Shown here: positions 27,125 to 27,849 of the stretch, in pieces
Layout of the letters: every line of letters begins with the position of its first letter
Position numbering within the stretch: position 1 is the first letter of the stretch
Source of the DNA: a phage
Strand: one strand, 5' to 3'
Sequence record: PQ724393.1
DNA length: 64,000 bases
Made by a program: the position numbers and the translations under genes
Notes under the pieces: generated by a model
Told to the model about the DNA's origin: nothing
Seen by the model: only the letters and a program-made list of their open reading frames with translations
Databases searched by the model: none

Positions 27125-27397
27125 TTATTTTAGATAAATTGCGTATTTTTTATAACCAGCCGTCTCGTGGCGCAGCCCTTTTTCATTAGCAAAACGTTCA
27201 ATATTGTTAATTTGATTCTGGTCTAGTTCTGAAGTATCAAATACAAAAAAGTTTCGCTTATTGCCTAAAGTTACGTGATTAGTCAAATCGATGTTATAGA
27301 GATGATTTATATTATCAATCATGGTCTTAACAGATTTGTTAATTTTTACTTCTTCATTAAGAATAGATTCAGCGATAAATTCTTGATAGGTTTTCAT
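27125..27397 (-). CDS. internal-protein-like protein with capsid targeting sequence ([10 protein letters not shown]) at the ipI locus
   Basis: start set at the CTS methionine (ATGA overlap with 57B stop); about 90 aa. Confidence 0.6.
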
Positions 27398-27849
27398 TTT
27401 AAATCCTCGGCCCAATCTAGCTTCAAGGGTTCTTTATATTCTCTGTCTAAAACAACAGGAATCTGGACATCTCCACTAAAGGTAAGAGGCCCTACATTAT
27501 AAGACAATGTGATATGAGGGGTATAATCATCGAAATCGTGCGTAGCACCTAAGGTACGAGCATACTGATGGCGGCATTTAAGATACTCTGAATTGAGGAC
27601 CAATACCAGGACAGGAGAATCACCATGTTTCCACACTTCAAGATGTCCTGACGAAGCAACTTCAAAACTTCCGGATGCAACGGTGTATGGAACGTTGACT
27701 CTTGAATAGCAGATTGTAGAATGGAATTTTTCACGAGGAACTGGATTAGGAACCTTTAAAGTGCGCTGAAGGTTTTCCAGCGCATCTAAAGTTAATTCAG
27801 AGAATTTTGCAGCAACGTATAGACCTTGAGCAAAATCTTCGGTTTTCAT
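27394..27849 (-). CDS. 57B: gene 57B product, 2H-phosphoesterase family (Acb1 anti-CBASS nuclease in T4)
   Basis: 151 aa; two H-x-[ST] motifs (HSTICYS, PHITLSY); position between ipI locus and 57A. Confidence 0.8.

Follow-up and report, generated by a model that had tools for sequence, protein, structure and literature searches.

In the phage DNA that we have analysed, a stretch of 64,000 nucleotides (sequence record PQ724393.1), which we refer to as the window, the open reading frame (ORF) located at positions 27394-27849 of the minus strand is very probably the acb1 gene (gene 57B) of a T4-like coliphage of the Dhakavirus type, predicted to encode a functional Acb1 enzyme. The gene is an orthologue of the gene for gp57B of phage T4: it is intact, all of the functional residues that have been named in the T4 protein are kept, it is under purifying selection, and it is found in a conserved gene order. 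By analogy with the characterised orthologues from phages T4 and FBB1, this Acb1 would share their enzymatic activity and their substrate range, and it would have the same anti-CBASS effect in vivo. A sequence-only reading of the window had placed an ORF of 151 amino acids at these coordinates, and this ORF is real, with the ORF listing giving a minus-strand frame that starts with ATG and includes its stop codon. The gene, its notable segments and its neighbours are located as follows:

27394..27849, minus strand: acb1 (gene 57B) coding sequence, 151 amino acids plus TGA stop, ATG start; predicted 2H-type cyclic-oligonucleotide phosphodiesterase, from the ORF listing and homology.
27715..27723, minus strand: catalytic motif 1, H43-S44-T45 (CAT TCT ACA), the equivalent of T4 Acb1 H44/T46, from the alignment.
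27508..27516, minus strand: catalytic motif 2, H112-I113-T114 (CAT ATC ACA), the equivalent of T4 Acb1 H113/T115, from the alignment.
27397..27429, minus strand: C-terminal segment, residues 141-151, including W146; putative counterpart of the Acb1 substrate lid, from the alignment only.
27849..28079, minus strand: gene 57A, tail-fibre assembly chaperone (Pfam PF17594 GP57, 91.9 bits; PHROG 1002).
28072..28833, minus strand: gene 1, dNMP kinase, upstream of 57A (Pfam PF21448 DNMK, 301.7 bits).
27125..27397, minus strand: ip9-type internal head protein, 90 amino acids, downstream of acb1 (PHROG 7673 "internal head protein", E = 2.9e-56).

The assignment of the product to the Acb1 family, which had been proposed from the letters of the sequence, is supported by a match to the Pfam family PF23474 (Anti-CBASS protein Acb1) that runs from end to end of the profile: residues 8-149 cover positions 1-144 of 144, with a score of 197.9 bits (E = 8.4e-59), the gathering score of the family being 27 bits. 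Among all PDB chains, the best match is 7T26_A (Acb1), with residues 9-148 of the window protein aligned to residues 2-142 of the chain (E = 1.6e-58), at 65% identity over 140 residues and with a single gap of one residue. An identity of 65% over 140 residues implies the same fold, and the compact 2H phosphoesterase fold that we infer for the window protein is taken from this solved chain; the model that was obtained with single-sequence AlphaFold2 for the 151-residue protein is unusable (mean pLDDT 37.9, pTM 0.28). The entries 7T26 and 7T27 correspond to the apo and the 3'3'-cGAMP-bound structures, respectively, of the Acb1 of Erwinia phage FBB1 (PMC9117128), on which the description of the 2H fold, the U-shaped pocket and the lid is based; FBB1 Acb1 differs from the window protein in that it comes from a phage of another host genus and has a one-residue length difference in the turn 74-80, and the construct that was crystallised is without the N-terminal 8 residues.

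The alignment with T4 Acb1, which the sequence-only reading had named as the way to check its proposal, gives 128 identities out of 151 (85%), 138 positives and 0 gaps (BLASTP against T4 gp57B, NP_049750). The active-site tetrad of T4 Acb1 consists of H44, T46, H113 and T115, the aromatic residues that stack on the bases are Y12, W74, F107 and W147, and the adenine-N6 contact is made by E141 (PMC9117128). All nine of these residues are present in the window protein at the T4 position minus one, i.e. Y11, H43, T45, W73, F106, H112, T114, E140 and W146, the shift in numbering being due to the window protein being one residue shorter at its N-terminus. Thus, the catalytic histidine pairs that were to be confirmed are found, with H43/T45 and H112/T114 aligned to H44/T46 and H113/T115 of T4, and the five residues that stack on the bases or read the adenine (Y11, W73, F106, W146 and E140) are likewise found at the aligned positions. 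The tetrad is invariant in an alignment of eight Acb1 sequences (the window protein and the proteins of T4, FBB1, JS10, RB16, nt-1, PhT2 and 50AhydR13PP), which represent six genera of Straboviridae plus FBB1 and extend down to 36% identity; the residues that are invariant across this alignment are Y11, H43, T45, P111, H112, T114, E137 and E140. In T4 Acb1, catalysis is abolished by H44A, both alone and in combination with H113A (PMC9117128). The substrate lid is formed by residues 145-152 in FBB1 Acb1, and W147 is its stacking tryptophan (PMC9117128); the C-terminal segment of the window protein is aligned to both T4 and FBB1 (...EELDLEWSD in FBB1) free of gaps, and the presence of a lid is thus indicated by sequence only.

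The two H-x-[ST] motifs on which the sequence-only reading had relied are indeed found, and they are exactly two in the 151-residue product. Such a pair is common in shuffled sequences: when the protein is shuffled at its own composition, 19% of the shuffles contain at least two H-x-[ST] motifs, and 5% contain at least two H-x-T motifs. The motif pair by itself is within chance, and has been discarded as stand-alone evidence for this reason; it is the full-length homology that carries the case for Acb1.

The rates of substitution (Nei-Gojobori) show that acb1 is under strong purifying selection: the dN/dS ratio is 0.034 against T4, where the synonymous sites have reached saturation; against JS10 it is 0.042, based on 13 synonymous and 2 non-synonymous differences. 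Three ORFs of the plus strand lie over acb1 (27275-27502, 27593-27709 and 27807-28106), and they are taken as incidental, because they are antisense to a coding sequence that is under strong purifying selection.

The gene is located at the position that is characteristic of 57B, as had been proposed, directly downstream of gene 57A; the TAA stop codon of 57A overlaps the ATG of acb1 (TAATG, 27847-27851), and the TGA of acb1 in turn overlaps the ATG of the internal head protein gene (ATGA). Such stop/start overlaps are typical of phage genes that are co-transcribed and translationally coupled. The order of the homologues along the minus strand, i.e. 4-2-3-1-57A-57B/acb1-internal head protein-trna.4-trna.3-trna.2, is the arrangement of T4, and acb1 directly follows 57A and gene 1 in the window, in T4, JS10 and RB16, in Vibrio phage nt-1, in Acinetobacter phage PhT2 and in Aeromonas phage 50AhydR13PP. 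As minor observations on gene 1, its dNMP kinase product has 253 amino acids in the window and 241 amino acids in T4 (a coding sequence of 726 bases with the stop codon), and the gene overlaps the start of 57A by 8 bases (28072-28079).

Among the closest known systems, T4 Acb1 (gp57B, NP_049750.1) is the orthologue: it has the same length with the exception of one N-terminal residue, it occupies the same place after 57A and gene 1, and its HxT/HxT tetrad, stacking aromatics, adenine-reading glutamate and C-terminal lid are identical. The degradation of cyclic oligonucleotides was discovered with this T4 protein, through activity-guided fractionation, and the protein was named Acb1 (PMC9117128). 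It hydrolyses cyclic oligonucleotides biochemically, with cGG and cA4 being left uncleaved, and nine further acb1 genes that were tested all gave cleavage of 3'3'-cGAMP and cAAA; both the hydrolysis of adenosine-containing cyclic di- and trinucleotides and the rescue of phage from CBASS have been reported for T4 Acb1 and nine more homologues (PMC9117128). The T4 gene is dispensable on K-12 and needed or important on a host that expresses CBASS (bioRxiv 10.1101/2025.11.20.689424).

If the window protein acts as its orthologues do, it would be a small, metal-independent 2H phosphodiesterase, whose U-shaped pocket would accept the cyclic di- and trinucleotides that serve as immune signals (3'3'-cGAMP, cUA, cAAA/cA3). 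The bases would be stacked on the conserved aromatic residues, one adenine would be read through the glutamate, and the C-terminal lid would shut over the ligand. The adenosine, distorted by the enzyme, would then attack with its 2'-OH the 3'-5' bond that is located 3' of it, and the two His-x-Thr motifs would provide acid-base catalysis, via a cyclic-phosphate intermediate, to a linear product, e.g. GpAp. With the signal destroyed, the CBASS effectors would stay inactive, so that the suicide of the infected cell would not forestall the replication of the phage. Nothing in the window protein speaks against the mechanism of the T4 and FBB1 enzymes.

The residues that differ from T4 Acb1 deserve separate consideration, as they allow for a reading in which substitutions of the Dhakavirus lineage have altered the range of cyclic nucleotides that is accepted by the enzyme, or have lowered its activity. 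There are 23 substitutions, most of which fall on the N-terminal residues 2-8 and on the turns 56-58 and 75-80; the turn 75-80, right after the stacking residue W73, contains five (at residues 75, 76 and 78-80). A selective pressure on acb1 is also known, since Panoptes types I and II select against an Acb1 that degrades cA3 broadly and yield escapers in which acb1 is inactivated (PMC13577387). We nevertheless consider this reading very unlikely: the nine named functional residues are all retained, the dN/dS ratio of about 0.03-0.04 indicates conservation and not diversification, the nine further acb1 genes all gave cleavage of 3'3'-cGAMP and cAAA (PMC9117128), and the characterised FBB1 Acb1 itself differs from T4 in the turn 75-80. 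With a similarly small probability, the turn 75-80 (HGDSPV, against TQDGST in T4, with five of the six residues differing) might narrow or shift the substrate range of the Dhakavirus Acb1; if this were true, the shifted enzyme could spare cA3 or decoy nucleotides and avoid tripping Panoptes, yet still destroy the CBASS signals.

The label "RNA ligase", which is borne by PHROG 755 and by RefSeq records of 57B, corresponds to another reading, in which the protein is a LigT-like 2'-5' RNA ligase or an RNA-repair enzyme that acts on RNA ends and not on immune signals. The LigT branch (PF13563) shares with Acb1 the two H-x-T/S motifs and the metal-independent acid-base chemistry that proceeds via a 2',3'-cyclic phosphate, and the window protein does bear a faint resemblance to Pfam PF13563 (2_5_RNA_ligase2); the two families have the HxT/S motifs and the fold of the 2H superfamily in common. 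This similarity is confined to residues 69-122 and reaches 13.8 bits (E = 0.062), against a cut-off of 27 for PF13563 and against the 197.9 bits that are obtained with the Acb1 model over its full length; moreover, the T4 protein, which is 85% identical, has been shown biochemically to hydrolyse cyclic oligonucleotides (PMC9117128). The substrates of the LigT enzymes and 2'-5' RNA ligases are RNA ends instead of cyclic oligonucleotide signals, and this difference, together with the score below threshold, leads us to conclude that the window protein is not a member of the LigT family; an RNA ligase function is extremely unlikely, and the label looks like an older name that has been carried over from the superfamily, through the LigT relation, and not a tested function.

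Lastly, the reading in which a chance ORF or a decaying pseudogene carries two H-x-S/T motifs by luck, which the frequency of the motif pair in shuffles (at least two motifs in 19%) would favour, is excluded by homology, selection, overlaps and conservation: the ORF aligns to T4 over its full length with no gaps, its family match has an E-value around 1e-58, its purifying selection is strong, it has tight stop/start overlaps with both neighbours, and its conservation extends to more than 1400 phage genomes.

Over the 5 kb that surround acb1, the window shares 99.9% identity with Escherichia phage fDHCT2 and about 93-96% with a group of phages, QL01, WG01 and MX01 among them. The Acb1 protein has 100% identity to its counterpart in MX01 and 98.7% to that in JS10, which is the closest classified relative (Straboviridae; Tevenvirinae; Dhakavirus); the gp57B of MX01, JS10 and fDHCT2 is the same gene and belongs to one phage lineage with the window protein, with essentially no sequence difference. 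Beyond this lineage, the protein has been found in 1471 phage records, 1461 of which have a coverage of at least 80%.

The names under which the gene appears in public records vary. Many records, those of fDHCT2 and MX01 among them, list it as "hypothetical protein"; it is called "gp57B conserved hypothetical protein" among Dhakavirus records, "RNA ligase" in the RefSeq records and in PHROG 755, as mentioned above, and "putative phosphodiesterase" in one record (JLBYU31). Our search of NCBIfam returned no family model for the Acb1 protein, and the missing model probably perpetuates the inconsistent annotation.

The sequence-only reading was right to describe the counter-defence function as known and not new. 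What the window contains is a well-characterised gene in a phage that is essentially identical to sequenced isolates, and the finding is, accordingly, already known. The practical gain is a corrected label, i.e. anti-CBASS phosphodiesterase Acb1 in place of "hypothetical protein" or "RNA ligase". For those who use this phage, e.g. in therapy or in host-range work, an intact acb1 predicts that the phage resists CBASS systems that signal through cGAMP or cAAA. It may also predict sensitivity to Panoptes, which fires on the depletion of cyclic nucleotides: the guard systems Panoptes I and II respond to this depletion and restrict Tevenvirinae that have an intact acb1, and the phages that escape from Panoptes carry acb1 mutations (PMC13577387).

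The same strategic outcome as that of Acb1, namely the removal of the second messenger, is reached by two other phage proteins, Apyc1 and Acb2, which have no sequence relation to this ORF. Apyc1 is a phosphodiesterase of the MBL fold, i.e. of an unrelated, metal-dependent fold, and its targets are cyclic mononucleotides, whereas Acb2 is a sponge that sequesters the signal instead of cleaving it.

The suggestion that acb1 anchors a region rich in anti-defence genes is weakly supported. One neighbour, the ip9-type internal head protein, is suggestive; the other downstream genes (the homologues of trna.4, trna.3, trna.2 etc.) are without known function, and an anti-defence-rich region is plausible by analogy with T4, where acb1 adjoins ipI, the inhibitor of GmrS/GmrD (PMC9117128). 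The 90-residue internal head protein begins with an N-terminal capsid-targeting sequence of the T4 type, and its homologues are annotated as ip9 in phages VR5 and VR26. It was considered as a homologue of T4 IPI (anti-GmrSD) and rejected: the alignment with IPI is limited to the first ~40 residues (E = 0.008), which comprise the N-terminal signal for capsid targeting and the residues after it. Thus, the downstream neighbour of acb1 is ipI in T4 and an unrelated ip9-type protein in the window, and the two share only the N-terminal capsid-targeting signal.

As a side observation, the body of the 90-residue protein (residues ~18-90) has matches of 46-51% identity in small phages that are not T4-like, namely Escherichia phage M01 (45 kb) and KS_S4 (58.5 kb), where the targeting signal is absent; this distribution suggests that the body may be a mobile module that has been recruited as an injected protein. 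Two further ORFs of the minus strand start with a capsid-targeting signal of the T4 type: an ORF of 154 amino acids at 24676-25140, which starts with MKTYNEFLTE and for which only a weak match, within the first 44 residues, to a PHROG named "internal virion protein" was obtained, and an ORF of 198 amino acids at 15374-15970, which starts with MKTYKEFIAEA. With three ORFs that carry this signal, the candidates for internal, injected head proteins in the window number at least three.

With respect to expression, the search for sigma-70-like promoters between positions 26800 and 30600 gave 13 hits, against 11.3 ± 3.9 in shuffled sequences, and we therefore claim no gene-specific promoter for acb1, the hits being at shuffle level; no intrinsic terminators were found in the same interval. 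The nearest late promoter box of the T4 type (TATAAATA) on the coding strand is located at 30806-30813 (minus strand), upstream of gene 4. Transcription from this late box may extend through acb1, and this would agree with the expression of T4 57B/acb1, which is predominantly middle/late (bioRxiv 10.64898/2026.03.30.715471). The box at 30806-30813 is one of two late promoter boxes that are placed back to back between the opposed genes 4 and 53, the other being located at 30791-30798 (plus strand), and no other late-promoter consensus lies closer upstream of the gene string 4-2-3-1-57A-acb1.

The search against Rfam returned nothing in or beside acb1, and the only RNAs of the whole window are two tRNAs at 25591-25747, about 1.6 kb away. 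This tRNA cluster, which is encoded by the minus strand downstream of the acb1 region, consists only of tRNA-Arg(TCT) and tRNA-Met(CAT); the equivalent locus of T4 comprises eight tRNAs, segB and the small RNAs rnaC and rnaD.
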